Origin: an uncultured delta proteobacterium
GTDB taxonomy: Bacteria; Desulfobacterota; Binatia; Binatales; Binataceae
Direction: 5' to 3'
Assembly (NCBI GenBank): GCA_963724395.1
Contig: CAVRUK010000006.1
Coordinates: 2,379,125 to 2,443,124 of the forward strand
Length of the DNA stretch: 64,000 bases
Numbering within the stretch: position 1 is the first letter of the stretch; each line of letters begins with the position of its first letter. Made by a program: the position numbers and the translations under genes. Shown in pieces: positions 7,771 through 49,034 of this stretch. The notes under the pieces were generated by a model. That model made no database searches, had not been told where the DNA came from, and was given only the letters and a program-made list of their open reading frames with translations.

Positions 7771-7779
7771 CCCGATCGC

Positions 7780-8481: not shown

Positions 8482-8508
8482 CCTCCCCTCGGATAAGGGG
8501 AGGTTAGG
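8482..8508. repeat. short palindromic hairpin repeat, family B
   Basis: 'cctcccctc ggat aagggg aggttagg'. Confidence 0.5.
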
Positions 8509-8521
8509 ATCGGGCGCGATG

Positions 8522-8608
8522 CCCCGCATCGTTCTTAGTACCGGGTGCAGGGGTCACCCCTGCCGAAGGAAGCGTGAAACCCACGCGGGTTTCACATTAA
8601 ATAAAGTG
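8522..8608. repeat. REP/MITE-like intergenic repeat, family A, copy 2
   Basis: Same two-hairpin element as 6313-6415 ('ccccgcatcgttcttagtaccgggtgcaggggtcacccctgccgaaggaagcgtgaaacccacgcgggtttcacattaaataaagtg'). Confidence 0.8.
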
Positions 8609-8615
8609 AATTTGC

Positions 8616-9542
8616 CTACTCGACCGACCTATCACTCTCGACGCGGCTGCGGGTCAGGTACACCGAGCCCATAGCGGCGAACTTCCGTTCGCGCGCGCGG
8701 CGCAACTCCTGCGGTTTCAGCTTGAGCAGGCGCTCAAGATGCCGCGCCAGGGCCGCGCCGATCAGATGAGCCGCTTCGGCGGGTGCCGTATGGGCTCCGC
8801 CGACGGGCTCCGGCACGATCTCGTCGATCAATCCAAGCTCCAGCAAGTCGGGCGCCGACAACTTCAGCGCCGACGCCGCCGCGGCGACGTTCTCCTCTCC
8901 GCCCGCGCGCCACAAAATCGCCGCGCATCCTTCGGGCGTGATCACCGAGTAGCACGCGTTCTCCTGCATCAGCACCACGTTCGCCACTCCGAGCGCCAAC
9001 GCGCCGCCGGAGCCGCCCTCGCCGATCACGCATGCGACGATTGGCACCGTCAGCCGCGCCATCAGTTCGAGGTTGCGCGCGATCGCCTCGATCTGCCCGC
9101 GCTCTTCCGCGCCGACTCCCGACTCCGCGCCTTGAGTGTCGATCAGCGTGATAATTGGTAGCCCAAACCGCTCTGCCAGTTCGTAAACGCGCGTTGCCTT
9201 CCGATAGCCCTCGGGCAGCGGCTTCCCGAAATTGCGCTTGATTCTCTCATTGGTGGAGCGGCCCCGCTGATGCCCAACCACGGCGACCGCGCGGCGCCCG
9301 AAATATGCGAGCCCCGCCACGATCGCACCGTCGTCGGCGAAGCGGCGGTCACCGTGTATCTCGACAAAGTCGCGCATGAGCAGGTCGATATAGTCGAGCG
9401 TCTGCGGCCGATTGGCATGGCGCGCCAGGCGCACGCGCTCGATTGCGCTGCGCGGCTCGGCCGCCGGACCCTCGACCGTCGCGACATCGTGGCCGCGATT
9501 TTTGCCGCCGCGCGCCCTATGTCCGTTCGAATTGTTTTTCAA
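8616..9542 (-). CDS. accA: acetyl-CoA carboxylase carboxyltransferase alpha subunit
   Basis: AccA signature region ('LDYIDLLMRDFVEIHGDRRFADD', 'GFGLPIITLIDTQGA'). Confidence 0.9.
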   Translation of the reverse strand: MKNNSNGHRARGGKNRGHDVATVEGPAAEPRSAIERVRLARHANRPQTLDYIDLLMRDFVEIHGDRRFADDGAIVAGLAYFGRRAVAVVGHQRGRSTNERIKRNFGKPLPEGYRKATRVYELAERFGLPIITLIDTQGAESGVGAEERGQIEAIARNLELMARLTVPIVACVIGEGGSGGALALGVANVVLMQENACYSVITPEGCAAILWRAGGEENVAAAASALKLSAPDLLELGLIDEIVPEPVGGAHTAPAEAAHLIGAALARHLERLLKLKPQELRRARERKFAAMGSVYLTRSRVESDRSVE

Positions 9543-10534
9543 TCCGCTTCACGCCTGCCTGTCGCAAACAATTTCTCGAACAACGCAAGAGCATCCTGAG
9601 CGCCGCGCTCGGGGTCAAGCCACACGACGTCCCGCTCGCGGCGAAACCAGGTGAGTTGACGCTTCGCCAGCCGCCGCGATTCCTGCTTCGCTTGCGCAAT
9701 CGCATCGTCAAGCGCCATCTCGCCGCGCAGATACGCCGCGATCTGCTTGTACCCAATCGTACTAAGCGGCGGCTTCTCGGGCGAGTATGCCGCCTCGATC
9801 AGCACCCGCGTCTCCGCGACCAGCCCGGCCGCGACCATCGCGTCGAAGCGCCGGTCGATAGCCTCGTAGAGCGTTTTCCGTTCGACTTCGACGCCGACAG
9901 TTAAGGTGTCGTAGCCGATATCGGCAAATCGATGCCGCCGCTGATGCGCCGAGATCGTTTCACCGGTCAGCTCGAAGACTTCGAGCGCGCGCACGACGCG
10001 GTACAAGTCGTTGACACCGATTCGATTCGCCGCCTCGGGATCGACCTCACGCAACCGCTGATGCAGATGCGCGACGCCGTGCTCCGCCGCGATTGTCGCC
10101 AGTCGGTCGCGAATCTCGCTCGAAGCGGCCGGCCCGCGAAAGATTCCGCCGCGGATCACGCGCAGATAAAGCCCGCTGCCGCCGACCACCAGCGGATTTC
10201 GCCCGCGCGCCGCGATTTCCTCGATACCGGCGCGCGCGAGTTGCGCGAACTCCGCCACGTCGAGCGACTGGTCGGGATTGCGCACGTCTATAAGATGATG
10301 CGGCACGCGCGCCCGGTCGGCAGCGGACGGTTTCGCCGTACCGAGATCCATCCCGCGGTAGAACTGCCGCGAGTCGGCGTTGACTATCTCGCAGTTCGAG
10401 CGCTCCGCCACCGCCATCGCGAGCGCAGACTTGCCCGCCCCGGTCGGCCCGACGATAAACCCGACGGCGATTCCCGCCGGACGCGTCCGCGCCGCGATTC
10501 CCGCCGCCTCTTCCGATGCCGGCAGGGCGCTCAT
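9539..10534 (-). CDS. miaA: tRNA dimethylallyltransferase
   Basis: P-loop 'GPTGAGKS' and MiaA motifs. The ORF-track N-terminal extension (to 10711) lies inside mutL. The likely start at 10534 gives the ATGA-type 4 nt overlap with the mutL stop. Confidence 0.85.
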   Translation of the reverse strand: MSALPASEEAAGIAARTRPAGIAVGFIVGPTGAGKSALAMAVAERSNCEIVNADSRQFYRGMDLGTAKPSAADRARVPHHLIDVRNPDQSLDVAEFAQLARAGIEEIAARGRNPLVVGGSGLYLRVIRGGIFRGPAASSEIRDRLATIAAEHGVAHLHQRLREVDPEAANRIGVNDLYRVVRALEVFELTGETISAHQRRHRFADIGYDTLTVGVEVERKTLYEAIDRRFDAMVAAGLVAETRVLIEAAYSPEKPPLSTIGYKQIAAYLRGEMALDDAIAQAKQESRRLAKRQLTWFRRERDVVWLDPERGAQDALALFEKLFATGRREAD

Positions 10535-14369: not shown

Positions 14370-14460
14370 CGTTTTCCTCATTTTTCGAAGGCTGCGGTGA
14401 CCTCTCCACGCTAGAATAACGGGCGAGAGACCAGAGAGTACAGGCTTTGATGGAAATGCC

Positions 14461-15111
14461 GTGAGCGGCTACAATTCATCCGGTCGCGAAACCAATTGCC
14501 ATGGAGTCCTTGTGAAGAACATTTCTAATCGCGGGTCCAGCCGCCCTCTTCGTTTCGCGGCGGTTGCTCTATCGGTTGCGGTCGCCGCGGGTCTCGCTGC
14601 TGGAGCGCGGATTGCGGGCGCGGCGAATGTGAGCGGCTTGATGTCGTATCGCGATGGCAGGCCGGCGGACAAGCGCGAGCTTCATTATGAGAACCGTGCC
14701 ACGAGCGATATCTACGTCGCACCGACCAAGCCCGACGGCTCGTTCACGGCGGATCTGCCGCCAGGCGTCTACGATCTGCGCGCCGAACGCGGAGTAGTTC
14801 TCGCCAGCGGGATTCGCGTCGATGCCGCCGACGTCAATATCGGTCATGTCGTCGAGCCGGCGCCGCTGGACGTACGCCGCCCGTTCGAGCGTGAAGGCAT
14901 AGCGGAGGCGCTCGTCGAGAGCCCGGCGCCCGCGACTGCGAACTTGACTTCGGGACGTGCTATCGCGGCGATGAGATACGGGCACGAGGCGATTGCTCCA
15001 ATGGGAGCGCCGGGGACGCCGGCGCCGCAATCCACTCCGCTCGGCGAGCTGATGCCCGAAGCGGGCGCCTCACCTTCGACGATGGAAGTACCTGGTTACG
15101 TCGGACACTGA
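14461..15111 (+). CDS. secreted carboxypeptidase-regulatory-domain-like (beta-sandwich) protein
   Basis: Signal-peptide-like hydrophobic segment; 'DG.F.....PPGVYDLRAE..G' pattern typical of the CarboxypepD_reg fold. Exact start uncertain. Confidence 0.45.
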   Translation: MSGYNSSGRETNCHGVLVKNISNRGSSRPLRFAAVALSVAVAAGLAAGARIAGAANVSGLMSYRDGRPADKRELHYENRATSDIYVAPTKPDGSFTADLPPGVYDLRAERGVVLASGIRVDAADVNIGHVVEPAPLDVRRPFEREGIAEALVESPAPATANLTSGRAIAAMRYGHEAIAPMGAPGTPAPQSTPLGELMPEAGASPSTMEVPGYVGH

Positions 15112-15630: not shown

Positions 15631-17540
15631 GTGAATTTCCGGTTGCTGCAAAAGCTCGCGACCGCGGCCTGCGCGATTGCCGCGATTTACCTGCTCTCGA
15701 TTCTCGTCACGGGCGGCTACGCGGTGAATTTTGCCGGCGCCAGCTTCGACGCCGACAAGCTATGGCCCGCGATCGTGGCGATGCTGGGCTTCGCACTGCT
15801 GCGAACGTTCTTTCGGCATAGATCGATCGAAGGCGCGCTGCGGTCGAGTCCTGGATTTATCGTTTTCTCGGTTGCGCTGATCGTATTTCTCGCCAATGGC
15901 CGCACGATTTCCGGCGGCGACTCGGTGCCCGCGAAATATCTGCCGCTGAGCATCCTCGGCCACGGCAACTTCTACCTCGATCAACTGGCAACTTCAGGCG
16001 AGAAAAAAATCCCCTACTATCTATATGAGAGCGGCGGCCATTACGTGTCCGACTTTCCGGTCGGCGCCGCGCTGATGGCGCTGCCATTCTACGTGCCGTC
16101 AGTAGTGTGCGGCGTCAGCCCCAGCAGCAGGATTTTCTCCGAGCTCGAAAAAGTTTCCGCGGCGACTTTGGTGGCGCTCTCCGCCCTGCTGCTCTACCTG
16201 GCCGCCGTGCGCGTGACCGCCAACTGGATGGCGATGCTGCTGACGCTGCTCTACGCGTTGGGAACCACCAGTCTCAGCGTAAGCAGCCAGGCGCTGTGGC
16301 AGCATGCTCCCGCGCAGCTCGCGCTAGCCGCGGCGATCTATTGCCTGGTACGCGCACGCGACGATCCGCGCTGGGCGGGATACGCCGGGCTGCCGCTCGC
16401 CTTCGAGGTGATCACGCGTCCGGCCGATGCGCTGATCGCGGCGCCGCTCGGACTGTACGTGCTCGTCAGCTATCGTCGCGAGATCTGGGTGTTCATCGCA
16501 ACCGCGACCCCGCCGCTGCTTTTTCAACTGTGGTACAGCGCCGCCTACTTCGGCACGCCGTTTCGAATACAATTTCTCGCGCATCCGCAGTCGGCGGGCG
16601 GCCAGACCGCCGGCGTGGACGACACCGCTCGCGAAGGGATTGGCGGTAGTGTTATTCAGTCCCGGCCGCGGACTGCTTTTTCTACTCGCCGATTTTCATT
16701 CTCTCAATCGTCGGATTGGCGCTGGCGTGGCGGAGAAATGGCGACCTGCTGCTGCGCTACCTCAGCGTCGGCGCGATTTTGAGCATATTGGTGGTCGCCA
16801 AATGGCGTACGTCCTCCGGTGGCGAGTCCTTCGGCCCGCGACTGCTCGCGGATCTGTCACCGATAATGGCGTTCGCGCTGTTTCCGCTCAAGGATTCCAT
16901 CCGCAATCGACGCGCGCTCGCGGTCGCCTTCGCATTGCTTGGCGCATGGTCGATAACCGCCAACGGTTTTGGCGCGTTTATCAGTTATCGGGGATGGAAC
17001 CGCTGGGCGCTCAACGATGCCGACACGCGACTGTGGTTGTGGGGCGACAATCCGGTCGTCGATCCGTTTCGCTCGCTTCTCGACTCGATCAGAATTGCGC
17101 TGGCTCATCGTCCAACCAGCCGAAGCTCGCCCGACCTGCTCGATGCCCGCTTCATCGTGCTCGATCCGCCTCGACCCGATGCCGCGCCGGGAGCGCACGT
17201 CCGCGTTGCCCTGCGCGCAACCAACACCGGCAAGGCGGTCTGGCTCACGGGGCGTTCACCGGATGAACCCGGTGTGGTCAGCCTGGGATGGGAGTGGAAG
17301 CGCGAGGGTAAGGCGGTCGGCGAGAGCGAAGCGCGGCGCGAGCTTCACCTGAACGTATTTCCGGACGACTCGATGGATGTACAGGCATCCGCGCTGGCGC
17401 CCGATGCGCCCGGCCAGTACGAGCTGGAAGTTTCGCTCGCGGCGGGAACCGGAAACCATGCGCCTCGTACAATTGGGCTGCCCTTGACGGTTCCGATAAC
17501 GGTCGTCGGCGCCGACGCGGCATCCGGCAGCGCGCCGTAA
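15631..17540 (+). pseudogene. polytopic membrane GT-C-like glycosyltransferase with C-terminal periplasmic beta-sandwich domain; reading frame interrupted by an apparent single-nucleotide frameshift near 16650-16700
   Basis: The membrane-protein signal is continuous in frame 1 up to about 16660 and then continues in frame 0 ('...YSPIFILSIVGLALAWRRNG...'). The third overlapping ORF is Arg-rich nonsense. This is either a genuine disruption or a sequencing indel. Confidence 0.45.
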
Positions 17541-17577
17541 CCGGCAAATCAGATCAGAGGTTGCGGCCGAGCGGTAA

Positions 17578-18348
17578 TCATTTGCTGCCGCTGGCGGGAG
17601 TCGGCTGGCCGCCGGGGCCACCGCCACCGCTAAACCCTCCGGCTCCAGCCGCGGCCCCTACGCCAACGCCAGCCGCCAGGCCTACTCCGAGCGCGGTCGC
17701 ACCAAGCGCGCCCAAACCTGCACTTCCTTCCCAGAATGCGCCGCATCTGATCTCGCTATGCTTTCCCTGGTGAACGTCCCGGCATTGCGGAGGATTGTCA
17801 GTATTGCAGAACAGCACCGTGCCGTCCTCGACGTCGACGCGGGTCCGTTTGCGGCATCCCTTCGAGCCTTCGTGCTCGTCTTCGTCGTAGTCGGTATCCC
17901 ACTCGGTCCCGCGAACGGCTCCGACGGCGTTGGGGGTGTTCACCTGGAAGTTCGTCGAACTCCCGCGCATCGCACCTACGATCAAGGAGTGCAGATGGCC
18001 GCCCAGCAGTCCGACCTTGCTCGGTGCGCCTACTCCGTTGACCAGCACGCTTTCGTCAAATGTCAGGGTCGATGAGGGCCCCAATTTCAGAGAGCTATTG
18101 TCCACCAGCGCGATGGTCATTGCGGTGTTCGCGTCGGTCGCTACCTTGTCGTGCAGCATGATCGGCAGATTCGGCGCAGCCGCGATGGTCGCGCCGTTGC
18201 GTTGAATGTTCGCCGTACCTTGCAGTTGAGAGATCGTGCCGACCGTATTTTGTGCGCGCGCGGCTGGAACCGCTGTCACAAACGCAAGCATTGCCAGCAC
18301 GAACAGCGAAGCGATTCTAGAACATCTCATCTGCTTTTGCCTCTGCAT
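17578..18348 (-). CDS. secreted FecR-domain protein with Gly/Ala-rich C-terminal module
   Basis: Signal peptide; FecR-like beta-sandwich region ('ISQLQGTANIQRNG...IMLHDKVATDANTAMTIALVDNSSLKLGPSSTLTF'); C-terminus 'CGAFWEGSAGLGALGATALGVGLAAGVGVGAAAGAGGFSGGGGPGGQPTPASGSK'. Confidence 0.6.
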   Translation of the reverse strand: MQRQKQMRCSRIASLFVLAMLAFVTAVPAARAQNTVGTISQLQGTANIQRNGATIAAAPNLPIMLHDKVATDANTAMTIALVDNSSLKLGPSSTLTFDESVLVNGVGAPSKVGLLGGHLHSLIVGAMRGSSTNFQVNTPNAVGAVRGTEWDTDYDEDEHEGSKGCRKRTRVDVEDGTVLFCNTDNPPQCRDVHQGKHSEIRCGAFWEGSAGLGALGATALGVGLAAGVGVGAAAGAGGFSGGGGPGGQPTPASGSK

Positions 18349-18534
18349 TATGGCCTGCGTTATTCAATCCCCTCTATTCAAAAACTGACCGCGCTCAGTA
18401 TTGCAAAATGCCTAGATTGACGAAAAGGGGGTGAATTTGGCGCCAATACGTATACCCTTTAACCGGTAGCAGTGGCTAGAGCCATTACGACCCGCATCTT
18501 TGACAATTTCATGAAGGTTATGCTTGAGCATTTT

Positions 18535-19731
18535 TCAGTTGATGGCGGCCTCTGAGCGATCGCTCAAGATACCCACCGCGTCATCCTGAAGACTGACGCG
18601 ATGATCTCTCGCCAACACGGTCGTGTAGAGATTCAGCGTCCGAGCACCCATTTTACGGATTCCGAATTCGTTGACGACCCTATCGCGCGCGGCACGTCCC
18701 ATCCTCATCCGCAGCTCGGAGTCGAGTAACAGCCGGTTGAGCGCGTCCGCCATCGCATCGGAACTCCTGGGCTCGACCGTAAAGCCGGTAACGCCGTCCA
18801 GCGACGCGTAAGGAACGCCGGAATCGATCCGGGTGTTTACCACCGGCCTGCCACACGCCATCGCCTCCAATTGAACCAATCCAAAGGCCTCGCTGCGCTC
18901 ACACGACGGCAGCGCGAAAATATCGCAGGCGTGATAGTAGCTGGCGAGCTCGTCGTGGACCTCGCCGAGAAAAATTACCCGCTCGGAGGTCCCGTTGCTT
19001 GCGGCTTCGCGCTCGAGTTCGGCGCGCAGCGGGCCTTCGCCAATAATCACCAGCTTGGCGTCGACCTTGGACATCGCCTGGATGAGAAACTTCATTCCCT
19101 TGTAATAAACCAGCCGCCCAACCGCCAGAATCACCCTCGGCCCGAAACGCTGGCGCAGCCTGTCGGTGAGCGACCGGTCAACGCGGTCGTTATCGAATTG
19201 CCGCGCGTCGATTCCATAGGGAATCAAATGGCAGCGGCCGGCGTGCTCGCGGAGCACCGGTGAGCTAGCGATATAAGCGGGCGAGGTGGCGACAATCGCG
19301 GCGCATCGGTTAAGCAGCAGGCGTTCGAACGGCTGATAGAGGCGGGCCAGCCGCCGTTGGCGCACGACGTCGCTGTGCCAGGTCACGACCAGCGCTCCGG
19401 CAGGCCGTCCGATCAGGCAGGCGATTACTGCGGCCGGGTTTGGCAGATGCAGATGCACGATATCCGCGCGTTCGCGCCGGAGACTGTTGATCATAGCCGG
19501 GCATATCGGCGCCGCAGCCAGCGTCATCACCCGTCCGAGCCGGACCAGGTCGATGCCCTCGACGCTGCAACGGTCCTGACGCAAACGATCGTTGGCGACG
19601 ATCACTTTCAGATCGACCGACTTGCGCAACTCTGAACACAGGTCCAGGAGATGCGACTCGATACCGCCATGATGGGGCGCAAAGTACTTGCCGATCTGCA
19701 ATACGCGCAGCCGGCCTCCGTTGGAGGTCAT
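18535..19731 (-). CDS. glycosyltransferase family 4
   Basis: GT-B fold GT4 motifs ('EAFGLVQLEAMACGRPVV'). Confidence 0.85.
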   Translation of the reverse strand: MTSNGGRLRVLQIGKYFAPHHGGIESHLLDLCSELRKSVDLKVIVANDRLRQDRCSVEGIDLVRLGRVMTLAAAPICPAMINSLRRERADIVHLHLPNPAAVIACLIGRPAGALVVTWHSDVVRQRRLARLYQPFERLLLNRCAAIVATSPAYIASSPVLREHAGRCHLIPYGIDARQFDNDRVDRSLTDRLRQRFGPRVILAVGRLVYYKGMKFLIQAMSKVDAKLVIIGEGPLRAELEREAASNGTSERVIFLGEVHDELASYYHACDIFALPSCERSEAFGLVQLEAMACGRPVVNTRIDSGVPYASLDGVTGFTVEPRSSDAMADALNRLLLDSELRMRMGRAARDRVVNEFGIRKMGARTLNLYTTVLARDHRVSLQDDAVGILSDRSEAAIN

Positions 19732-19884
19732 CGACGCAACCCTGGCACTTGGACGCCCGCGCTTTGAACTGATTTGTACAAACTCGGAACAGCACGATAC
19801 CTTCGGTTCGTCCGCAGCTAATCACGCCACTCCCGTTAAGCATGACCCGCCGGACGAACCGGGAAATCGAAACCAGGAGTCGAT

Positions 19885-20391
19885 CTAATGGGACGGCGTA
19901 CTCGGTCCCGAGCTGCCACCGCCACCGCTGAAACAGCCCGCGGCCGCGCAAGCTCCCAGTCCTGCCCCCGTCGCGACGAACAGTGCGGCGGCACCGATGA
20001 CCGCGCCGCCTCCAAGCCACGCCGCGCCGCAAGCACCCGGCGGATTTTGAGACGAAGACGCGACTACAGTGGGTGATAGTGACCAGTCTTCTGTCAGACC
20101 TTCCGCCGGGATCGAGCTGTTGGTCGCCCCTGGCTGGAAACCTCCGGGCGGATTCACCGAGGTCTTGTAAGTGCCTGGGTCGATTCCTGTGATGCAATAT
20201 CTACCGGCATCGTTGGTCGTCCCTTGCCCAACTACCTTTCCGCTCGCGTCTGTGACGGTAACTTGTGCTCCGCCTACTGGACCGCCGGGTCCGCCCACTT
20301 GACCGGTGAGGTCAGAACAGAAAGCAACCGGCGTAAAAGAAAGGCACAGAGAAACCAGCGAACAAACCGCCACATATGATCTATTTTTCAA
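19885..20391 (-). CDS. secreted carboxypeptidase-regulatory-domain-like protein with Gly/Ala-rich C-terminal module
   Basis: Signal peptide; 'VTVTDASGKVVGQGTTNDAGRYCITGIDPGTY' CarboxypepD_reg-like; C-terminus 'CGAAWLGGGAVIGAAALFVATGAGLGACAAAGCFSGGGGSSGPSTPSH', similar to the tail of 17578..18348. Confidence 0.55.
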   Translation of the reverse strand: MKNRSYVAVCSLVSLCLSFTPVAFCSDLTGQVGGPGGPVGGAQVTVTDASGKVVGQGTTNDAGRYCITGIDPGTYKTSVNPPGGFQPGATNSSIPAEGLTEDWSLSPTVVASSSQNPPGACGAAWLGGGAVIGAAALFVATGAGLGACAAAGCFSGGGGSSGPSTPSH

Positions 20392-20691
20392 GTCGGGGAC
20401 CCTCCCGTGAACTGCTACTTCCGTTTTAACTGTCGAATTCCAACTGCCCTACAAATCGAACCGACTTCCCCGCTTGCGTCGAACCCTTCAGGTTTACGGT
20501 GTTTCCGGCGGCACCGGAAACATATACCGGTGTCGCAACTGTTTCTCCCTGCGTCGCCAACGTCTTCATTTAATGATTCAGAATTGGTACTCGCCGCTTA
20601 TCGCCAGTGGCGGCCCGGACTTCGTTTGTTGTCAGTATGCTACCAGAAAACGTCTCATAAGGTAACAATTCACCACGTTAGCTGTCAAGCC

Positions 20692-20721
20692 GCGTCAGTT
20701 TCGGCTGATGCCGCTTTTTTT
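20692..20721 (+). terminator. candidate intrinsic terminator on + strand with no annotated upstream + gene
   Basis: 'gcgtcag-tttcgg-ctgatgc' 7 bp stem (one G.U) followed by cgcTTTTTTT. Confidence 0.4.
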
Positions 20722-20755
20722 ATCATTAAATCAAGGTAATGGAAAACAGTCAGAA

Positions 20756-22009
20756 TCAGGCGGCGAGGCGTCGGCGATCCGCAAGCTCCCGATAATAGGC
20801 GCTATATTGCCGCGCGACTGTGGCAACCGAATAGGCTTGCACGCGCTCGAATCCACGCCGCGCCATCTCGGCGCGCAACTCCGCGCTGCCAATCGCTTCG
20901 CGTATCGCTTCGGCCCAAATCCGGGCGTCATTCTCGGGCAGGACCTTGCCGGCATCTCCGATGACGTAGGGTATTTCTCCAGAGTCGCTGCCAAGCACCG
21001 GTACGCCGCACGCAAAAGCCTCTATCGTCATGCGTCCGAACTGTTCTCGCCATCGCTGCCCAGTCTGACTGGGGGCGAGAAGAAGATCGGCGGCGCCGAG
21101 ATAGGCCGGTACGTCGCGATGCGGCACCAGGCGGATCTGCACACGATTGCTCCAATCGCGAGCTGCGGCCCAATTGCGAAGATTGGCTTCCATCGGACCA
21201 GCACCCAATACCAGCAAGCTCCATGGAGTTGAGCTGCCGACTAACTCCATCGCGCCCATTATTAGATCGATTCCCTTCTCATGGGTCAGTCTGCCGACAT
21301 AGGCGACAATTGGGGGAAGCAAACCGAGATCGCGCGCGACCGCCTGCTTGCGATCCGGCGTGAAGGGCCTGAAGGCGTCGAGATCTACGGCGAAGGCTAT
21401 GATTTGGCCCCGCTCTTTCGGATAACCACGCTTGGTCATCGTTTCGAATACCAGATTGCCGCCGGTAATCCACCCTTGTGCGCGTTCGCGAACGGAGCGT
21501 TCGAAGTAAGAAAACGGATACGGGTACCGCTTCTCTATATTTTGATTGGTGCGAAAGCAGAACGTTGCGTTCGACTTCTCTATCGCCCTCGCGATTTGAT
21601 AGCCCGCGTAGGTGTACGGCTCCTCCCAGCCGTCAACGACGTCAAAGGCGCCGTTTTCGATTAGCGCCGCAAGACCGCGGCGATCATAGGCGAATATTTG
21701 CGGCCAATTCGTAAACCGCGCCGCGAGAGCTCGCAGCTCGAGGTTGGATTCCGGCGGTTCCGGTTGCAATTCGATCAGGCCGAGTCCGCTGCGGAAGGCG
21801 ATTGGCGCGGCCACGGTCACATCAAGCTGAGGGTCGCGCGCGACCTCTCGACTCACCGCACGGTTTTCCGCGACCACGCAGGAGTGGCCAATCGTGAGGA
21901 CGCGAATGCGATGATTCAACGGTTTTCCACCATTGGCGTCGAAAGGGCCGCGAGGCATTCGTTCAAATCCGCGCGTTCCGCGGGTGTCGCGATCACATAG
22001 GAGTCCCAA
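20756..22009 (-). CDS. glycosyltransferase family 4
   Basis: GT4 C-terminal motifs ('EAFACGVPVLGSDSGEIPYVI'). N-terminus may start later, near MPRGPF. Confidence 0.8.
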   Translation of the reverse strand: MGLLCDRDTRGTRGFERMPRGPFDANGGKPLNHRIRVLTIGHSCVVAENRAVSREVARDPQLDVTVAAPIAFRSGLGLIELQPEPPESNLELRALAARFTNWPQIFAYDRRGLAALIENGAFDVVDGWEEPYTYAGYQIARAIEKSNATFCFRTNQNIEKRYPYPFSYFERSVRERAQGWITGGNLVFETMTKRGYPKERGQIIAFAVDLDAFRPFTPDRKQAVARDLGLLPPIVAYVGRLTHEKGIDLIMGAMELVGSSTPWSLLVLGAGPMEANLRNWAAARDWSNRVQIRLVPHRDVPAYLGAADLLLAPSQTGQRWREQFGRMTIEAFACGVPVLGSDSGEIPYVIGDAGKVLPENDARIWAEAIREAIGSAELRAEMARRGFERVQAYSVATVARQYSAYYRELADRRRLAA

Positions 22010-41367: not shown

Positions 41368-44238
41368 CTAGGGGGTTTGCGCTCCGGCCTGTGCGGGACC
41401 GGCGTTGGCAAACTTTTTGTGGAAAGAGTCGAAGCTCGATTTGTAATTCTCGTTATCCGGCGCTAGTTGGACCGCACGCGCATAGGCCTTGTCGGCGTCG
41501 GCGTAGTTGTATGCTTGCTCGTCCGCCTGCGCCAGTGAGTAGTAGGCCGGCGCCGAATCCGGGTCTAACTGGATCGCCCTGCCGAGCGTGATCACGGCCT
41601 GGTTGAAATCGCGATTGTGAGCGTAGAGGGTGCCGAGCCGGAGCATCACGTCGAACGAGTCCGGGCGCTCAGCGGCAATTTGCTTGATCGCGTCGATCGC
41701 CGACGGAAGGTCGCCCATCTCCTCCGCGGCATCCGCCTGCAGCAACTCCATCGCGTAACGGTCGACTCCGTTGTCGATGGCCTGGGCGATCGTGCTCTTG
41801 ATCCCTGCCATGTCCTTCTGCCGCGCGTATACGTCCCTTGCCAGCCCGTAATACGCGTTCGGATTGTCGGGCTCGATTGCGATCGCTTTTTCCAGCAAAG
41901 ACCGCGCGCGTTTGAAGTCGCGCCCTCGCGACGCAGCGTCAGCAGCGTTCATCAGGTCCAGGTACTGGGTATGAGAATCGCGTGCGTGTTGCGCGCCGTC
42001 GGCGTAAAGCGACGCTTCGTCGGAATATTTTCCGACCCCGTCATCCAGGGTGGCCGCCGCCGTGAGTGCGCCGGGGATCTGCTCGGCACTCGCGCGCGCG
42101 ATTCCGCGTTCGATCGCGCTGCGTTCATCCTGCGATAGCCAGCCGATGATCCGATCCGACATATAAGGATGCGTCCGCGGCCACGGCGAGTTGAATACTG
42201 AAAGTTCGATCTGCTTGAGCGCGTCCGCATTTCTGCCGGCCGCCGCAAGTTCCCGCATGTATGCGTCGCGCGTGTAAGGATTCATGGGATCGAGTGCGAC
42301 CGCGATCTCCCACTCGCGGATACGGTCTGGAAGCCGCATGCGAGCGCCGAGAAAATCGACCGTCGCTACATGCGAAAATGCGTTGGCCGGGTACAGCAGC
42401 AGCATCCACTTTGCCTGCGCGACGGAACTGGGCGGCTCCAGATTGTACGGATACGCAATCGCGGGTTGCGCGAACGTCGCCGCGAGCAGCGCGACGGCCG
42501 ATATCGGCACCCAGATTCGCGCAAACACGCCGCGCGGTACTTCGAACGCGTCAGCATCCCCGTCGACGGTCCACGACCACGAGACCCTGACCGCGAGGCC
42601 GAGAATCATCGCAAAGAAAAAAGCGATCGCTGGAATCTGCAGATCGAAATCAAAAAACTCAACCACGCACATGATCGCCAGCGCCCCCACCAGCGCTGCC
42701 TGGACCGGCACGATCTTCCCGGGCAACTGCGCGAACCTGCGATAGATGAAGCTGCCGGCACGCAGGATGAACCACGCCGCCAGCACCAGCCCGGCCACTC
42801 CGGTCTCCGCGATCAGTTGCAGATAGTCGTTGTGCGCCTCTGAAAGGTACAGTTCCGACCACGGCCGTGCGCGGTATCGCGTGAACAGCTCGGGCCACGT
42901 CCGAAGGCCCATTCCCACCGCGGGAAAATCCTCGACTATCTTGAGTCCGTTGGCCCATCCACTTGTCCGGTCCGGCAAAGCGGCGTCGACCTCCAGAGAA
43001 TACTGCACGCGCGCAGTCACCTGGGTCCTGCCGCTCGCTCCGATGAACGACATCGCCAGCACCAGCATGCACGACGCTCCCACCAGCGCGATTCGGCGCG
43101 AACGCACGGTACCTTTGCTGCCTTCCTCCTGGCGGGAGGTCAGAACCATCACCAGCAACACGCCGAGCGCGAGACCCGTCCAGCCGGCCCGCGACTGGCT
43201 CATCAGAATCGCGGCCATCAGTACGAACGACGTCACGCCGCATGCTATGCGGTACCCATTCGACCACCGCGAAGAAATCAACGGGCTGCCAAAGAACGTT
43301 CCCGAAATCGCGAGCGGGAAAATCATCGAGAGGAAGCCGGCGAAATGATCGGGGTCAACAAACGGACCGCTGGCCCGCGGCATGATACCCGATTGCGGAG
43401 CGCCCCAATCGAGCGGCACGAAAAACCACAGAATCCTGCCGTTCCAGGTCGCTTGCTGAACCAGCCCAAGCGTCGCGATCCCCAGCCCCACCGCAAGAAA
43501 GACCGTCATCACGGTGCCGACAAACCAATCACGCTCTACCGTGGAAGCGATTGCACCAACGGGAACGAACGCCACCAGCATGAACAGCGCACCGCATGCC
43601 GCAAACAAAACCAATCCCGACCACGACAGCACCGGCGCGATCGAAAGAGGCCGCCACGTCGTCGAGTAGATTTTCGAAAGCCTCCGCAAGCTTCGATCTG
43701 AGGAACCGCTGCCTGCTTCGCTGGCGCCGTTACCCGCGTCGCTTCTTGCCGCCTGCGATCTCGGTGCAAATGGAATCGGCGCACCCGCCTTCACCTCGTC
43801 GACCGTCGGCAGCACCACGGTCCGAGCCTCTGTCCCCGAGGACGCCGGATGCTCCGGATTGAGAGAACCTTCCAGGCCCGCGTATGGAGATTGCGCGGGC
43901 CACCCGGGAAATACCTGCTGGTAAAGCGTGTAGGTGGATGGCGACAGGAAATGAACCGCCGCCGGTGGCAGCGGTATCAATTGCAGCAAAGCAAACGAGA
44001 GAAACGCTACGATCGGCATCGCGAAAGTTCGAATCTGGATTCGAAGTTCCGCAGGCTGCCCGTCACGCGCCGCGCGGCCGAAGGGCCACAGCAGCAGGAG
44101 CGCGAACGCCGATGCTTCGCCGATCTTGTAGGCCCACGGATGGACCGCCCCGAACGCCAGCGGCATGAACACGGCCAGAAAAACAATTCCAGCCATCAGC
44201 AGCGCCCGGCGCTTGCGGTTATCGTGCATGCGACTCAA
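41368..44238 (-). CDS. O-antigen ligase (Wzy_C) domain membrane protein fused to C-terminal TPR repeats
   Basis: Wzy_C-like core ('MSQSRAGWTGLALGVLLVMVL'); about 300 aa C-terminal TPR-like repeats ('AYYGLARDVYARQ', 'APAYYSLAQADEQ'). Confidence 0.75.
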   Translation of the reverse strand: MSRMHDNRKRRALLMAGIVFLAVFMPLAFGAVHPWAYKIGEASAFALLLLWPFGRAARDGQPAELRIQIRTFAMPIVAFLSFALLQLIPLPPAAVHFLSPSTYTLYQQVFPGWPAQSPYAGLEGSLNPEHPASSGTEARTVVLPTVDEVKAGAPIPFAPRSQAARSDAGNGASEAGSGSSDRSLRRLSKIYSTTWRPLSIAPVLSWSGLVLFAACGALFMLVAFVPVGAIASTVERDWFVGTVMTVFLAVGLGIATLGLVQQATWNGRILWFFVPLDWGAPQSGIMPRASGPFVDPDHFAGFLSMIFPLAISGTFFGSPLISSRWSNGYRIACGVTSFVLMAAILMSQSRAGWTGLALGVLLVMVLTSRQEEGSKGTVRSRRIALVGASCMLVLAMSFIGASGRTQVTARVQYSLEVDAALPDRTSGWANGLKIVEDFPAVGMGLRTWPELFTRYRARPWSELYLSEAHNDYLQLIAETGVAGLVLAAWFILRAGSFIYRRFAQLPGKIVPVQAALVGALAIMCVVEFFDFDLQIPAIAFFFAMILGLAVRVSWSWTVDGDADAFEVPRGVFARIWVPISAVALLAATFAQPAIAYPYNLEPPSSVAQAKWMLLLYPANAFSHVATVDFLGARMRLPDRIREWEIAVALDPMNPYTRDAYMRELAAAGRNADALKQIELSVFNSPWPRTHPYMSDRIIGWLSQDERSAIERGIARASAEQIPGALTAAATLDDGVGKYSDEASLYADGAQHARDSHTQYLDLMNAADAASRGRDFKRARSLLEKAIAIEPDNPNAYYGLARDVYARQKDMAGIKSTIAQAIDNGVDRYAMELLQADAAEEMGDLPSAIDAIKQIAAERPDSFDVMLRLGTLYAHNRDFNQAVITLGRAIQLDPDSAPAYYSLAQADEQAYNYADADKAYARAVQLAPDNENYKSSFDSFHKKFANAGPAQAGAQTP

Positions 44239-44304
44239 ATCGGCTGTGGATTTCGCGGGGGAGGCTCGATCCGATCTACCGACTACGGCTCAACAAAATC
44301 CCTG

Positions 44305-46680
44305 CTATGCGTTGTCAGGACCACTGGAATCTTTGTAGAGCATTTCGAACGTGGCATCGGGTTTCGTGTAATGATTGTAGTAGTGTGAGTAGTGCCCGTA
44401 GCCAGGATGCTTCACGTCTATCTCGTTCAGCAGCACGCCAAAGACTTTTGCGCGCGCGTATTCGAGCTTGGCGCACGCCATCTTCACGTGATGCTTCGAG
44501 GTCTTGAGGCTGTTCACGACCAGCACCACTCCATCGACGACCGTTGCCAGCAGCAGCGCGTCGCTTACCGGCATCACCGGCGGCGAGTCGATGATCACCA
44601 CATCATGCTCATGAGCAACCATGCTGAGCACCTGGTTCATTCGCTCTGATCCCAGCAGTTCGGTGGGATTGGGCGGCAGCGAGCCCGCGCTCATGAACGA
44701 AAGGCCGTCAACGAGGGTCGTTCTGATCACATCCTGCACTTCGCAGGTTCCGGTCAGCACTTCGGTCAAGCCCGACGAGTTCTCCACCGCTAGCACGCGA
44801 TGGCAGCGCGGTTTTCTGAGATCGGCGTCGATTAGGAGTACACGCGCACCGGTCTGCGCGAACATCGCCGCCGTGTTAGTCGCCGACACGGTCTTGCCCT
44901 CCGCGCTGTGCGCGCTGGTGAACAGGATCGTCTTGGGCGGCGCTCCCGCCCTCGACAGCATCAGCGCGGTCCTGAAACTGCGATAGGCCTCGCCGACCAG
45001 CGAATACGGATTTGCCACTCCGAGCAATTCGCGCCCGTAGCCGATCTTCTTGACGCCGTTTTCTTCCGGCAGCAGTGTCGTGTCTTTCGCCTTGAGGCGA
45101 ATGCCGGCGAACGACGGAATCGCACCGATATTCGGCACGCGCAGGTATCGTTCCACCTGTTCCGGTGTCTTGAGCGTGGTGTCCAGGTATTCCAGCCCAA
45201 AGACCAGCCCGATCACGGCGAACAGCGCCAGCGCGGTGTTGCGCACAATCATGCTGAATTTTTTCGGACTGGAGGGCCCGCCCGGCGTTTCCGCCGGATC
45301 CACGATTATGATGTTCGAGGTCTGCGACTCTGCCGCCAGCGCGATGCCCTTCATCCGCTGCAGTACGCTCTCATAGAGTTCGCGGTTGGTATCGACTTCG
45401 CGCTGAAGAATCGCGTATTCAACCGCCGCATCGTTCAGCCCCAGCGCCTGCTGGCGCTCCTTGTCCATCTCGACCTGAAGCTTTTTTTCCTTGTCGGATG
45501 CGGCCTGGAAAGAGCCCTGGATCCCCTCGATGACCCGCGAAATCTCCGCGTCGAGGCGCCGTTCCAGTTCCTGTCGCTTGGCCGCCATCTGCGCCATCGG
45601 CGGGTAGTCGGGCTTAAATTTTTTCCCCATGCTGGCGTAGTCGGCGTCAAGCGTATTCAACTGCGATTGCACGGCTTGAACCGCCGCATCGCTCATCACC
45701 GCCGGCATCGAATCGTATTTGCGGCTGTTGATCAGCTGCACCTGCGCCTCGAGCCCGATCCGCTCCACCTGCGCGGTCGTGAGGTCCTTGCTCAATTCCG
45801 AAATTCGGTCGAGAACGACTGTCTCCTTGCCATCCAGCGACATCAGGCCGGGGACGATTCCTTTCGCGCGGCGATAGTCATTCACCGCGATCTCGGACTT
45901 CTCCAGGCTGTCCTTCAGTTCACTGAGCCGCTGCTTGAGGAAACTTTCCGCTTCCTCGTTGGCCTGGCTGCGAAGTTGGATTCCCAGCGCGATATATCCG
46001 TGCGCGTGCGCGTTGGCGAGTTTGGCCGCGAGATTCCGATCGGTCGAAACGTATGCGATCCTCACCAGATCGGTGTCGGGTACCGGCGATATCCGCAGAC
46101 CACCCAGGTAGGCACCGACCAGTCCTGCGGAAACTCCGTTGTGCGCCGTCCCGGTGTCCTCAGGTTGCGGTCGGGGCTTGCGCCCGCTGGTCTGATTCAG
46201 CCAACGGCTGACAGACGACAGCGCGGTCGAAATCAAGCCCGGTTGCGGCTTTGGTCCGATGAACGCTTTATTCTGTTCCAGGTTCTCTGCGCGAACTACG
46301 TATGCGGCCAGACTTCGGCTGCGTAGAATTTCGTACTGCGTCTTCTGGAAGTTCTCGTACATATCCGAGTCGTACCAGGGCTCCTGATCCCCCTGCACAT
46401 CCTTGCCTTCCATGATCTGCGGAGTTCCCGGTTTCAGCAGTATCGTCGCCTCCGCCGTGTAGAGCGGCGTCTGCATGAATTCGTAGATGGTGGTCAATAC
46501 CAGGGCCGCGAACACGACCCCGATAACCAACGCCAGGCGCTTGCGGATTACGTGCCAGTAGCCAAGCAGATCGATACGGCCTTCTTCTTCGTCGAAGCTT
46601 CCCGCGCCGAAGCCGGCCCCGCGCACGGGTTCCTCGAGATGGCTCGTGCGACGAATGAAATATGGTGACGGTTGGGTCAT
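44305..46680 (-). CDS. wzc: polysaccharide co-polymerase / BY-kinase (Wzc/GumC-like)
   Basis: Wzz-like chain-length-determinant N-terminus; coiled-coil periplasmic region; Walker A 'SAHSAEGKTVSATN'; C-terminal Tyr cluster 'YGHYSHYYNHY'. Confidence 0.85.
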   Translation of the reverse strand: MTQPSPYFIRRTSHLEEPVRGAGFGAGSFDEEEGRIDLLGYWHVIRKRLALVIGVVFAALVLTTIYEFMQTPLYTAEATILLKPGTPQIMEGKDVQGDQEPWYDSDMYENFQKTQYEILRSRSLAAYVVRAENLEQNKAFIGPKPQPGLISTALSSVSRWLNQTSGRKPRPQPEDTGTAHNGVSAGLVGAYLGGLRISPVPDTDLVRIAYVSTDRNLAAKLANAHAHGYIALGIQLRSQANEEAESFLKQRLSELKDSLEKSEIAVNDYRRAKGIVPGLMSLDGKETVVLDRISELSKDLTTAQVERIGLEAQVQLINSRKYDSMPAVMSDAAVQAVQSQLNTLDADYASMGKKFKPDYPPMAQMAAKRQELERRLDAEISRVIEGIQGSFQAASDKEKKLQVEMDKERQQALGLNDAAVEYAILQREVDTNRELYESVLQRMKGIALAAESQTSNIIIVDPAETPGGPSSPKKFSMIVRNTALALFAVIGLVFGLEYLDTTLKTPEQVERYLRVPNIGAIPSFAGIRLKAKDTTLLPEENGVKKIGYGRELLGVANPYSLVGEAYRSFRTALMLSRAGAPPKTILFTSAHSAEGKTVSATNTAAMFAQTGARVLLIDADLRKPRCHRVLAVENSSGLTEVLTGTCEVQDVIRTTLVDGLSFMSAGSLPPNPTELLGSERMNQVLSMVAHEHDVVIIDSPPVMPVSDALLLATVVDGVVLVVNSLKTSKHHVKMACAKLEYARAKVFGVLLNEIDVKHPGYGHYSHYYNHYTKPDATFEMLYKDSSGPDNA

Positions 46681-46696
46681 ATCACTAGATTCACCT

Positions 46697-47992
46697 TTAG
46701 AAAGTCGGCAACGGGATCGCCATCCGGGTCAGCACGTTGTACACGACATACGGTCCAATCTTGGCGTCGGAGTATGGAACGTCGATTACGTCGTTCGCCC
46801 GGACCGGGATGTCAGGCGCCGCGCCCTTGGCAATTTTGTCCAGATCGATGGGTATCGCAACCTTGTTGCCATTGCCGTCGCTGCGCATCAACGTCGCACT
46901 CCCGGGAGCGGCTGCATACATCGCTCCGCCCGCCGAGCCGACCGCGCCCAGCACCGTCAGCCCCGAACCGACCTGGAAGTAGCCCGGCCGGTAGACCCAG
47001 CCGGTTACCATGACATTGCCCCCGCCGGGAACCACGACTATATCGCCAGGTTCCACAGGCATGTTCATGAAGTGCGCGCTCCCGGTCATGGCGGTAGCCT
47101 TCAAGGGAATAACCACTGCGGGTCCGTTGGTTACGCTCTGCTGCAGATCCTGCAGGGTGGGCGCGCCTTTCGGCGGCGGCACGGTTAGAACGTTGGCTGG
47201 AGGGCCGGCATGCGGATCCCCGTTGTCCGCGACGCTGACTGGACGACCGGCTTCCGCCGGCGACGCCATGGATTGCGCGACGCGTTGCAGTTGTATCCCT
47301 CCGCTGGTGTTCTGCGGCATGATGACGACTTCGTCGGCCGCTTCGGGGGTCGTGCCGCCCGCCTGCGTTATCACGTCAAGAATCGATTCGCCCGCTCCGC
47401 TGAGTGTAACCAACCCCGGCGCGCGGACGGCGCCCACCACGGCGACCTGCCGGCTCTTGTATTCCTTGACGAACAGGTCCACCTGCGGGTCGTACATGTA
47501 TTTTTCCAATGCAGTCGTGAGCTTGTCCCGCAGCTCGGATTCCGGAATGCCCGCAGCGTGGATTGAGCCGACCAGCGGCAAATCGATGTTGCCTTCGCTG
47601 CCAACCCTTACCGTGCGCTCCTTGAAATCATCCACTCCCGGCACCGAGATCTGAAGCACGTCGCCGACGCCGATCGGATAGTCGGTCGAGGTGGCTTTCG
47701 ATCGCACCGCCCACAGCGCGGCCAGCCGCTCGAGGTTCTTCGGCGAGTTCGCAACGCTTGGTATGCTTGCCGCCGCTGACGGCGACGAAACTGCCTCCGG
47801 CGATGCTGCCGCCGCCGATGAGGGTGAATCCGCCGCAGATGGCGACGCAGCAGCCGCCGCGGGCGGTGCATCCGCCGCATCTCCCTGAGGTGGCGCATCT
47901 CCGGGAGGTGGCGCGCTCGCGCAACCAATCAGCGCCGCGGCCGCAAATGCGGCAACTATGTACAGAACCCAACGTGTCGCGTGTTTGATCAT
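46697..47992 (-). CDS. wza: polysaccharide export outer-membrane protein (Wza-like OPX)
   Basis: Lipoprotein signal 'AALIGCAS'; Poly_export motif 'YPIGVGDVLQISV...GNIDLPLVGSIHAAG'; SLBB-like repeats. Start moved to MIKHATRW. Confidence 0.8.
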   Translation of the reverse strand: MIKHATRWVLYIVAAFAAAALIGCASAPPPGDAPPQGDAADAPPAAAAASPSAADSPSSAAAASPEAVSSPSAAASIPSVANSPKNLERLAALWAVRSKATSTDYPIGVGDVLQISVPGVDDFKERTVRVGSEGNIDLPLVGSIHAAGIPESELRDKLTTALEKYMYDPQVDLFVKEYKSRQVAVVGAVRAPGLVTLSGAGESILDVITQAGGTTPEAADEVVIMPQNTSGGIQLQRVAQSMASPAEAGRPVSVADNGDPHAGPPANVLTVPPPKGAPTLQDLQQSVTNGPAVVIPLKATAMTGSAHFMNMPVEPGDIVVVPGGGNVMVTGWVYRPGYFQVGSGLTVLGAVGSAGGAMYAAAPGSATLMRSDGNGNKVAIPIDLDKIAKGAAPDIPVRANDVIDVPYSDAKIGPYVVYNVLTRMAIPLPTF

Positions 47993-48438
47993 TTCGATTT
48001 CGAGACCCCTGCATCCGTTGCCGAGGCTCCCGCCTTTGCGATCGCCAGCGGCTGAGCCGTCGGCGACAACCCCCAATTTACGGTCAACCCTTCTGCGGGC
48101 ACATATGACATCACTGGCAGATATGACGTCACTGACTGACCCTTAAGCACCAGCGTGTAAGGACCCGGCTTGAGACCGCGTACTCGGTACGATCCTTCGC
48201 CATCGGTGACGACCGAACCTGCGCTTGCGCCGGATGAATCGAGCACCGAAACTTGAATCCCCACTGCGGGTTGTCCGGTCTCATTTGCGACGTGGCCGAC
48301 GACGTCCGCGCTCCATGCCGCCGCCGTCAGTATTATCGCGAACGCTCCAGTCATGGCCAATGTCGCGAGCGGTTTTCTCCGGGCACGCGTCCGCCCTCCC
48401 ATCGAGCGGGCCTTCCGATAAACGCCGTTAGAACTCAT
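47989..48438 (-). CDS. secreted carboxypeptidase-regulatory-domain-like protein
   Basis: Signal peptide; 'VSVLDSSGASAGSVVTDGEGSYRVRGLKPGPYTL' fold motif. Shares 'PAEGLT..W.LSPT' with 19885..20391. Confidence 0.5.
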   Translation of the reverse strand: MSSNGVYRKARSMGGRTRARRKPLATLAMTGAFAIILTAAAWSADVVGHVANETGQPAVGIQVSVLDSSGASAGSVVTDGEGSYRVRGLKPGPYTLVLKGQSVTSYLPVMSYVPAEGLTVNWGLSPTAQPLAIAKAGASATDAGVSKSK

Positions 48439-49034
48439 GTCTCCCCCAGCCGTTCGCTTCCCCGGACGTGAACAAAACTCAGCGCCGGCGCACTGTCTGA
48501 GCGTTTGGGCAGCCGTCAGCCGCGACCTGATAGAAACTCATCGATTGATCGCGCATCTAGTTTGGCTTCTGATTTCCGAAGGTAAATACCGTTAAACTAT
48601 AGTGAAACGTGAAAAGCGAGTCCGGTTCGCACGAGCTTGCATCCCACCCGAAACGATCTCTGGGCGACAAAAATATCACCCAAATCCCTCCGGTACGAAA
48701 AAGTGTCCGGTCCAGAATCAAGGCTGGATGCTAGCAAGTTCGCTGATGTTAAAGCAAGTAACGAATGCCTAAGAAAAGATGAGACGACGTACGACGCGTG
48801 AACGCTCGCAATTCGTCGCGCTCGCGTCCGCAAACACACCCGGGATAGGAATCGGGGCCCTATCGCGACTCAATTACAGACCACTTCGGTTCCGGTGCCG
48901 GTGAATGCGACGCTGCCGTTCGCCTGGCGCAGCGATCGGTCGCAGTCGCGTAGGCTATACTGGATTTCGGTTCAGGGAACGGCCACACCAACCTCCCAGC
49001 GGGTTGCAGTCCATGATAGCGAACTTCTCACGCT

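Follow-up and report, generated by a model that had tools for sequence, protein, structure and literature searches.

Two tail-bearing genes

We analysed a stretch of 64,000 nucleotides (the window) from the genome of an uncultured delta proteobacterium of the Binataceae, in which two genes of a polysaccharide locus encode secreted proteins with similar C-terminal segments. Protein 1 has a FecR fold (FecR-type) and protein 2 a transthyretin-like fold (Carbo-type), and the segment that they share, referred to here as the tail, consists of a Cys-aromatic motif, a Gly-rich linker, a hydrophobic core and a polar distal stretch. A preliminary description of this DNA had proposed that the tail is a sorting signal of the sortase/exosortase type. 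The two genes and the parts of their tails are located as follows, with bit scores from a hidden Markov model (HMM) of the tail and lengths in amino acids (aa) or nucleotides (nt).

17578..18348, minus strand: gene for the FecR-fold secreted protein with tail (protein 1), open reading frame (ORF) of 256 aa
17581..17745, minus strand: tail of protein 1, with CGAFW, Gly-rich linker, 21-aa core and distal SGGGGPGGQPTPASGSK; 71.8 bits with the tail HMM
17632..17694, minus strand: hydrophobic glycine-zipper core of protein 1, 21 aa (ALGVGLAAGVGVGAAAGAGGF), gap-free in the family alignment
17617..17631, minus strand: 15-nt stretch AGCGGTGGCGGTGGC (encodes SGGGG) in the tail of protein 1, identical to and in register with 19915..19929
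19885..20391, minus strand: gene for the transthyretin-like CarboxypepD_reg/SdrD_B secreted protein with tail (protein 2), 168 aa
19888..20031, minus strand: tail of protein 2, with CGAAW, linker, core and distal SGGGGSSGPSTPSH; 65.2 bits with the tail HMM
19930..19992, minus strand: hydrophobic core of protein 2, 21 aa (AALFVATGAGLGACAAAGCF region), holding the C-x6-C pair typical of the Carbo-type
19915..19929, minus strand: matching 15-nt stretch in the tail of protein 2, identical to 17617..17631

Both ORFs (minus strand, 256 and 168 aa) and their C-termini were reproduced at the coordinates given before. The N-terminal domains are unrelated, as had been described: protein 1 matches FecR (PF04773, E 2e-9, 38.1 bits, cut-off 24) and protein 2 matches CarboxypepD_reg (PF13620, E 3e-9, 37.5 bits, cut-off 32.3). 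AlphaFold2 models, built with 66 and 43 homologues for proteins 1 and 2, respectively, contain a confident beta-sandwich domain each. Foldseek relates the domain of protein 1 to the PupR/anti-sigma FecR fold (6ovk, 4m0h, E about 1e-4) and that of protein 2 to transthyretin/CnaB folds, in agreement with the Pfam matches. Secretion, which had also been proposed, is supported by signal-peptide-like segments at both N-termini. Protein 1 probably starts at 18330 and then has 250 aa, the length of P0001, a database protein of 100% identity whose start lies six codons downstream of that of the ORF; the signal peptide of protein 1 ends at AARA, followed by QN. A promoter and terminator scan of positions 17300-20900 gave nothing that exceeds the expectation from shuffled sequence.

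A homologous C-terminal module

The C-termini of the two proteins are homologous over about 50-60 aa, beyond compositional likeness. When aligned, the tails have 49% identical residues and a local score of 118, compared with 47±8 for shuffles of the whole tail and 61±9 for shuffles that preserve its three compositional zones; the observed score was reached by 0 of 3000 shuffles in either control. Low-complexity Gly/Ala composition, the explanation against which the preliminary description had set such a control, therefore fails to account for the similarity, and the tripartite C-terminal module that it had recognised is genuine and conserved. In a six-frame pattern search of the window, the combination of CGA[AF]W, SGGGG and TP was confined to these two ORFs.

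For the FecR-type query the best 120 of 284 database clusters were examined, and for the Carbo-type query 47 clusters. The listed homologues bear the tail, barring a few truncated or frameshifted entries. The family comprises more than 150 orthologues from about 30 Binataceae genomes; homologues bear the name Candidatus Binatus or Binataceae, and 'uncultured delta proteobacterium' is the label of many metagenome-assembled genomes.

An alignment of 55 diverse tails (A2), on which the tail HMM is based, divides the module into four parts. The first is a Cys followed by an aromatic residue (RCGAFW in FecR-type proteins, PGAC[GAE]x[WYF] in Carbo-type proteins), and this Cys is the sole invariant column. 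A Gly-rich linker of variable length leads to the third part, the 21-aa core, which aligns without gaps and has the near-invariant pattern G.G.G..A..G.F.G. The last part is a distal stretch of 5-30 aa, also variable in length and rich in Gly, Pro, Ser and Thr (in the FecR-type, 27% Gly, 19% Pro and 16% Ser). As had been noticed, the Gly-rich polar part sits C-terminal to the hydrophobic core. The 'FSGGGG..TP' ending that was taken as characteristic is present in this genome and in close relatives, but across the family only F-x-G is kept.

The near-invariant core columns G31, G33, G35, A38 and G41 form i/i+4 ladders of Gly and of Gly/Ala: a four-step Gly ladder (GxxxGxxxGxxxG) is accompanied by a second Gly/Ala ladder that is offset by two residues, and the glycine-zipper sequence pattern (G/A/S)xxxGxxxG is present. 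GxxxGxxxG and GxGxGxG are helix-packing glycine-zipper motifs, found for instance in ATP synthase c-rings and in channel-forming helices. Most Carbo-type tails have two Cys residues within the core (GACAAAGC, C-x6-C; 25 of 32), and the pair is lost where the Carbo tail was converted to the FecR-like 'GGVIGGYAAAGGF' type (P0155, P0161, L081).

Lys or Arg is found among the last three residues in 99 of 116 FecR-type and 25 of 33 Carbo-type tails, and in some relatives the tail ends in a Lys cluster of the KKKKHSDKD type. The distal segment of FecR-type tails has a net positive charge in 105 of 116 cases. The earlier statement that there is no basic tail is correct in that no Arg cluster abuts the core, but a terminal Lys/Arg is usual.

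To define the range of carriers, the tail HMM was run with all filters off on the six-frame ORFs of the window and of 91 further loci, together 1.24 Mb of mostly Binataceae DNA. Matches at E<=0.01 were FecR-type and Carbo-type ORFs alone, with scores of 17-78 bits, and in permissive runs (E<=1 and E<=10) the top non-carrier ORF remained below 12 bits. A search of related DNA, which the preliminary description had suggested, hence finds carriers in relatives, limited to two families. A pattern of composition and architecture that is independent of the HMM selected 40 ORFs, namely 39 HMM matches and one divergent FecR-type tail. The latter belongs to a FecR homologue of about 35% identity (L052, 1428-2306, plus strand) with a far more Ala-rich tail (C-ALLPTAAAAIAAAAGG...GGVVGGVAASGGFSSSSSNASPSR). 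In the final HMM run it did not pass E<=0.01, and the age and divergence of the tail thus exceed what the profile search can reveal. The shuffles, the specificity of the HMM and the independent pattern rule out low complexity as the sole explanation.

When 1.84 billion representative proteins were searched exhaustively with the profile, 15 clusters passed E<=1e-3, mostly fragments or variants of both families, a number that is a lower bound because about 35 bits were required and tails of the L052 kind escape. Further small secreted carriers with other N-termini are P0177, P0178 and P0179; in P0180 the motif is internal, and we regard this protein as a doubtful carrier that is probably unrelated. 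Even as a lower bound, so few clusters argue against a sorting signal with many diverse clients. No model of Pfam or NCBIfam (June 2026), CTERM models included, touches the tail at E<=10, whether full proteins or isolated tails are searched, which bears out the earlier statement that it matches none of PEP-CTERM, GlyGly-CTERM and MYXO-CTERM. Pro-Glu-Pro, said to be absent from the two tails, is missing from them and from more than 150 orthologous tails. As judged from these comparisons, the tail is a C-terminal module specific to the Binataceae lineage and undescribed in the libraries checked.

The two tails also show signs of concerted evolution. In six genomes with both genes on one contig, tail pairs from the same genome scored higher than pairs from different genomes, and the observed sum was reached by 3 of 720 permutations; this co-variation is not phylogenetically independent, because it is mostly due to two clades. 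In L081 the two tails have 94 of 108 nt in common, with the same codon at 24 of 26 identical residues, and in L011 the 21-aa cores are identical and 37 of the first 38 nt are the same. In the window, the 15-nt stretch that encodes SGGGG has two matches, where none is expected; a direct pattern search found it, although a general repeat search did not report it. The 15-nt identity is a footprint of common DNA ancestry or gene conversion. Given the in-register DNA identity in L081, in L011 and in the window, the tails are therefore one homologous DNA module that has been homogenised repeatedly by gene conversion between neighbours.

The polysaccharide locus

The tail genes are part of a Wzx/Wzy-type polysaccharide locus, which contains Wza (Poly_export/SLBB), a Wzc-type PCP kinase, Wzy_C+TPR, Polysacc_synt, Acyl_transf_3, several GT4 genes, a Glycos_transf_4 initiating transferase and a pectate-lyase-like protein of 1033 aa. 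Besides the tail genes, the following features of the window are of relevance.

18535..19731, minus strand: GT4-family glycosyltransferase gene, between both tail genes
15631..17540, plus strand: GT-C-like polytopic putative glycosyltransferase with a C-terminal Ig-like domain, convergent to the FecR gene
41371..48537, minus strand: core export genes of the same locus
47992-48537, minus strand: tail-less CarboxypepD_reg paralogue, export block
46700-48142, minus strand: Wza/Poly_export, export block
44308-46728, minus strand: Wzc-type PCP kinase, export block
41371-44289, minus strand: Wzy_C+TPR, export block

The tail genes flank a GT4 gene, as was described before, and the order Carbo-GT4-FecR recurs in L013, L014, L016 (also L063/L064) and L017. 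The arrangement FecR-Carbo-Wza-Wzc-Wzy_C/TPR is found in L011 and L081/L082. The tail genes of other genomes lie immediately upstream of the Wza-Wzc-Wzy block, and in Ca. Binatus soli the Carbo gene stands at the head of this block. The FecR-type and Carbo-type tail genes are thus always linked genetically, in one or other of two orders. Every export block contains a Wzy_C+TPR protein. The Wza of the window (46700-48142) has its best score against the export model of the XrtA/PEP-CTERM system, TIGR03027 (98.7 bits, cut-off 180), and also matches EpsE.

ORFs within ±10 kb of the FecR gene were clustered for 31 loci, and the conserved neighbours encode a glyoxalase, a secreted CarboxypepD-like protein of 200 aa, MutL, MiaA and GT4 proteins. 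The convergent GT-C-like gene (639 aa when intact) adjoins the FecR gene in 17 of the 31 loci. In the window it is read in two overlapping frames (15631-16782 and 16716-17540), and it is either a pseudogene or split by an assembly indel error; an intact homologue of 639 aa (L007, 11621-13540, minus strand) has 80% identity over residues 1-325 and 61% over residues 366-639. The protein matches a Leptospira putative glycosyltransferase family weakly (51.7 bits, cut-off 200) and PMT_2 with E 6.5e-4. A protein of 640 aa in L011 was considered as a GT-C-like neighbour and set aside, since BLAST finds no homology.

Directly upstream of the FecR-tail gene in L007-L010 (about 1600-9800) lie genes for radical-SAM/SPASM, PqqD, ScmC and NTP_transf_5 proteins and for two unannotated proteins of about 620-680 aa. 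In L010 a lasso-peptide-like set (Asn_synthase, PqqD, Hpr_kinase_C, Transglut_core3) is close to the FecR-tail gene as well; the window has neither of these gene groups. The radical-SAM/SPASM-PqqD-ScmC cluster was rejected as a tail-modifying system, because it is missing from the window and from the L011-L017 arrangements.

Several relatives of the two proteins have other C-termini. The genomes represented by L041-L046 encode a second, short FecR paralogue (about 10001-10440 in each) with a mature length of about 150 aa, which ends in ...GTDF.ISYEGPH and has neither the Cys-rich C-terminal subdomain nor the tail. FecR-like proteins without the tail occur in other Binataceae (L050, 9872-10633; L051, 9914-10567), with the ends ...PAPLGMEEMGAPGYH and ...PGPLGMGELGAHPGYR, and the conserved secreted CarboxypepD-like protein of about 200 aa (window 14401-15108, plus strand) has the C-terminal end ...TPLGELMPEAGASPSTMEVPGYVGH. 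FecR-type and transthyretin-type proteins of this clade may carry more than one kind of common C-terminal tag.

Elsewhere in the window, two adjacent genes (33710-35140 and 35232-36920, both on the minus strand) encode polytopic proteins with about 9 and 8 predicted transmembrane segments, respectively, and with similar N-termini (..YTENRYAQERRRAS.. and ..YAENRYTLERPRSG..). The first or second of the pair matches Wzy_C weakly, its partner no family at all; they are probably paralogous polymerase/ligase-like proteins.

Possible roles of the tail

We hypothesize, with moderate confidence, that the tail is a lineage-specific glycine-zipper anchor or assembly helix of two partner periplasmic proteins that belong to the Wza/Wzc/Wzy polysaccharide locus. 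We favour this reading because of the homology of the tails, the conservation of the core, the gene linkage, the gene conversion, the charge pattern, the placement of the Cys and the lack of a nearby protease. In the AlphaFold2 model of the FecR-type protein, CGAFW forms the last beta-strand of the confident fold. Conserved periplasmic Cys residues occur in even numbers, four in 108 of 116 FecR-type and two in 24 of 32 Carbo-type proteins. From the even count and the location in the last FecR strand, the tail Cys is probably disulfide-bonded and not free for modification.

In the proposed mechanism, both proteins would be exported by the Sec pathway via their N-terminal signal peptides. The Cys-aromatic motif would close the folded beta-sandwich domain, probably by a disulfide bond, and the variable Gly-rich linker would lead to the 21-residue Gly/Ala/Val core, with the i/i+4 ladders as putative glycine-zipper faces. 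The core would be located in or on the inner membrane, packed against identical or near-identical helices, which would yield homo- or hetero-oligomers of FecR-type and transthyretin-type proteins, or bring them into contact with a common partner. Phe-x-Gly would be positioned at the inner interface, and the short Gly/Pro/Ser stretch with its final Lys/Arg would be cytoplasmic; the distribution of charges fits an N-out/C-in helix. We infer membrane insertion, topology, the disulfide bond and oligomerisation from sequence features, and the co-variation of the two tails within genomes is indirect evidence for a helix that oligomerises in the membrane.

Several observations weigh against such a helix. 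The predicted local distance difference test (pLDDT) score of AlphaFold2 is below 50 in both tails (in the FecR-type protein, for everything past residue 203), and the models show coil for the FecR tail and no more than short low-confidence helices for the Carbo tail. The 21-aa core is marginally hydrophobic (mean Kyte-Doolittle value of about 1.65), and its summed free energy on the Hessa scale, about +3 to +3.6 kcal/mol, disfavours insertion of the core by itself. The distal tails of the Carbo-type have a net charge of about zero. Gene conversion requires merely nearby homologous DNA and is by itself no proof of helix-helix interaction. Finally, JDVT-CTERM, a proposed cleaved sorting signal, likewise has conserved residues inside its hydrophobic segment, which were taken as a sign of recognition by an intramembrane protease (Haft 2023), and conservation of the core can therefore not be used against a sorting signal.

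A rather unlikely alternative is that the tail is a cleaved Cys-type tripartite sorting signal, similar to MYXO-CTERM or JDVT-CTERM, with a putative intramembrane protease that would recognise the core and cleave close to the Cys, perhaps after modification of this residue. The mature protein would then move on to the cell surface or the polysaccharide layer. Gly/Ala-rich helix-destabilising segments suit intramembrane proteolysis, and the core is of this kind. The tripartite shape with an invariant Cys at its start points in the same direction, yet this Cys is part of a folded domain and of an even-numbered Cys set. Most members have a basic C-terminal residue, but the hydrophobic segment is without an adjoining Arg cluster, and no CTERM model matches. 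The conserved residues in the segment resemble those of JDVT-CTERM (Haft 2023), although the near-invariance of the distal F-x-G would be needless in a remnant that is discarded. The module is found on unrelated domains and on a few small secreted proteins (P0177, P0179), and the setting in a polysaccharide locus, with a Wza that scores best, below the cut-off, against the XrtA/PEP-CTERM export model, is also consistent with a sorting signal.

Among the multi-transmembrane proteins of the window we found no exosortase, rhomboid or CPBP protease, and among the conserved neighbours in the 31 loci no exosortase, rhomboid, CPBP or other intramembrane protease. The contexts of P0177, P0178 and P0179, which are short contigs or unrelated housekeeping neighbourhoods, contain no protease candidate. 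The co-occurring membrane protease that the preliminary description had asked for was therefore found neither in the 64-kb window nor among the conserved neighbours. According to the analysis of JDVT-CTERM, sorting systems with few clients usually have the protease adjacent (Haft 2023); by this rule, about two client families worldwide together with the lack of an adjacent protease count against a sorting signal. With diverse clients not found (15 clusters), no protease nearby and the Cys inside the FecR fold, the proposal of a sortase/exosortase-type signal is weakened, and we see no positive evidence for a general sorting signal.

We also consider it unlikely that the tail represents a Binataceae-restricted Cys-type sorting or attachment signal, 'CGAFW-CTERM', made up of the Cys-aromatic motif, the zipper core, F-x-G, a Gly/Pro/Ser spacer and a terminal Lys. 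Such a tail could be processed by a putative membrane enzyme, either a protease or the neighbouring GT-C-like or Wzy_C/TPR protein, and the FecR-fold and transthyretin-fold proteins would be anchored at the cell surface or joined by a covalent bond to the polysaccharide that is exported.

It appears quite improbable that the tail is exported entirely and acts in the periplasm or at the surface, not embedded in the membrane. It could then self-associate through Gly/Ala in a beta- or amyloid-like manner, lie in the membrane plane as a peripheral anchor, or provide, with its Ser/Thr/Pro-rich end, an acceptor that the GT-C-like or Wzy_C/TPR enzymes encoded nearby would O-glycosylate or link to polysaccharide. 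The unfavourable insertion energy and the coil in the AlphaFold2 model agree with this proposal, and the alternating G-x-G-x-G also suits beta structure, but it does not explain why Lys/Arg is conserved at the end and why the distal part is net positive. The distal part is rich in Gly, Pro, Ser and Thr, a Wzy_C+TPR protein is present in every export block, and in 17 of 31 loci the FecR gene has the GT-C-like polytopic putative glycosyltransferase gene as its convergent neighbour; however, this neighbour is missing from several loci (L010, L011) and apparently frameshifted in the window, and the family assignment of its product is weak (51.7 bits against a cut-off of 200; PMT_2 E 6.5e-4).

That the similarity of the tails arose by chance from Gly/Ala-rich low complexity in a GC-rich genome has a negligible probability: the tails are compositionally biased, and a two-sequence tail profile gave no match in a word-indexed protein search, a result that reflects low information and bias correction and not absence, as the query protein itself was missed, but the shuffles (0 of 3000 in both controls), the separation by the HMM of carriers (17-78 bits) from all other ORFs in 1.24 Mb at E<=0.01, the Cys and near-invariant positions in register across more than 150 orthologues and the in-register DNA identity between the two tails all stand against it.

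Tripartite C-terminal domains are the main clue for the discovery of protein-sorting machineries in bacteria, and the tail is new to Pfam and NCBIfam, in a lineage that is abundant in soil and uncultured. If the tail is an anchor or assembly helix, the FecR and transthyretin folds would constitute a two-protein periplasmic module, an apparent standard accessory of Binataceae polysaccharide export loci, and the membrane segment, common to genes without other relationship, would clearly exemplify concerted evolution through gene conversion. If it is instead cleaved as a signal, a sorting enzyme that has so far escaped recognition would be expected. With either reading, the tail HMM is a specific annotation marker for these proteins. 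The homology and the pattern of gene conversion are clean, and the carriers are two families from one uncultured lineage, for which we infer the function.

Comparison with known systems

The PEP-CTERM/exosortase system XrtA-EpsH (Haft et al. 2006, PMC1569441) is similar in that its secreted proteins have a hydrophobic C-terminal tail and are encoded at or beside a Wza/Wzc-type locus, and the Wza of the window scores best against the export model of the XrtA system, though under the curated cut-off. In contrast, the tail described here has no Pro-Glu-Pro, no match to TIGR02595 and no large set of diverse clients, and the multi-transmembrane proteins of the window include no exosortase. GlyGly-CTERM/rhombosortase differs as well: the tail has no NCBIfam match, its Gly-rich part follows the core, and no rhomboid is found among the scanned membrane proteins of the window.

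The Cys-containing CTERM signals (MYXO-, JDVT-, Synerg- and CGP-CTERM) share a length of about 50 aa, the C-terminal location, an invariant starting Cys, a hydrophobic segment and a basic end, and JDVT-CTERM further shares conserved residues within the hydrophobic segment and, apparently, very few carriers per genome. Unlike in these signals, a single terminal Lys/Arg follows a Gly/Pro/Ser spacer of 5-30 aa here, without an Arg cluster after the core. No model matches, the core is a marginally hydrophobic Gly/Ala zipper, the Cys is located within a folded domain, the carriers are two mutually linked families, and no CPBP protease is adjacent or in the neighbourhood (window and 31 loci).

Canonical FecR/PupR anti-sigma regulators have the same periplasmic FecR fold, but the topology is inverted in the FecR-type proteins, with a signal peptide before the FecR domain and the hydrophobic tail at the C-terminus. 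The N-terminal cytoplasmic anti-sigma domain is absent here, as is an adjacent gene for an extracytoplasmic function (ECF) sigma factor or a TonB receptor. The Pfam glycine-zipper models (Gly-zipper_Omp, YMGG, Rick_17kDa_Anti) match neither full proteins nor tails at E<=10. Compared with transmembrane glycine zippers, the tail is a single C-terminal segment on otherwise soluble periplasmic beta-sandwich proteins, with putative insertion and oligomerisation; it shares with them the Gly ladder at i/i+4 and the offset Gly/Ala ladder, a pattern of tight helix packing.

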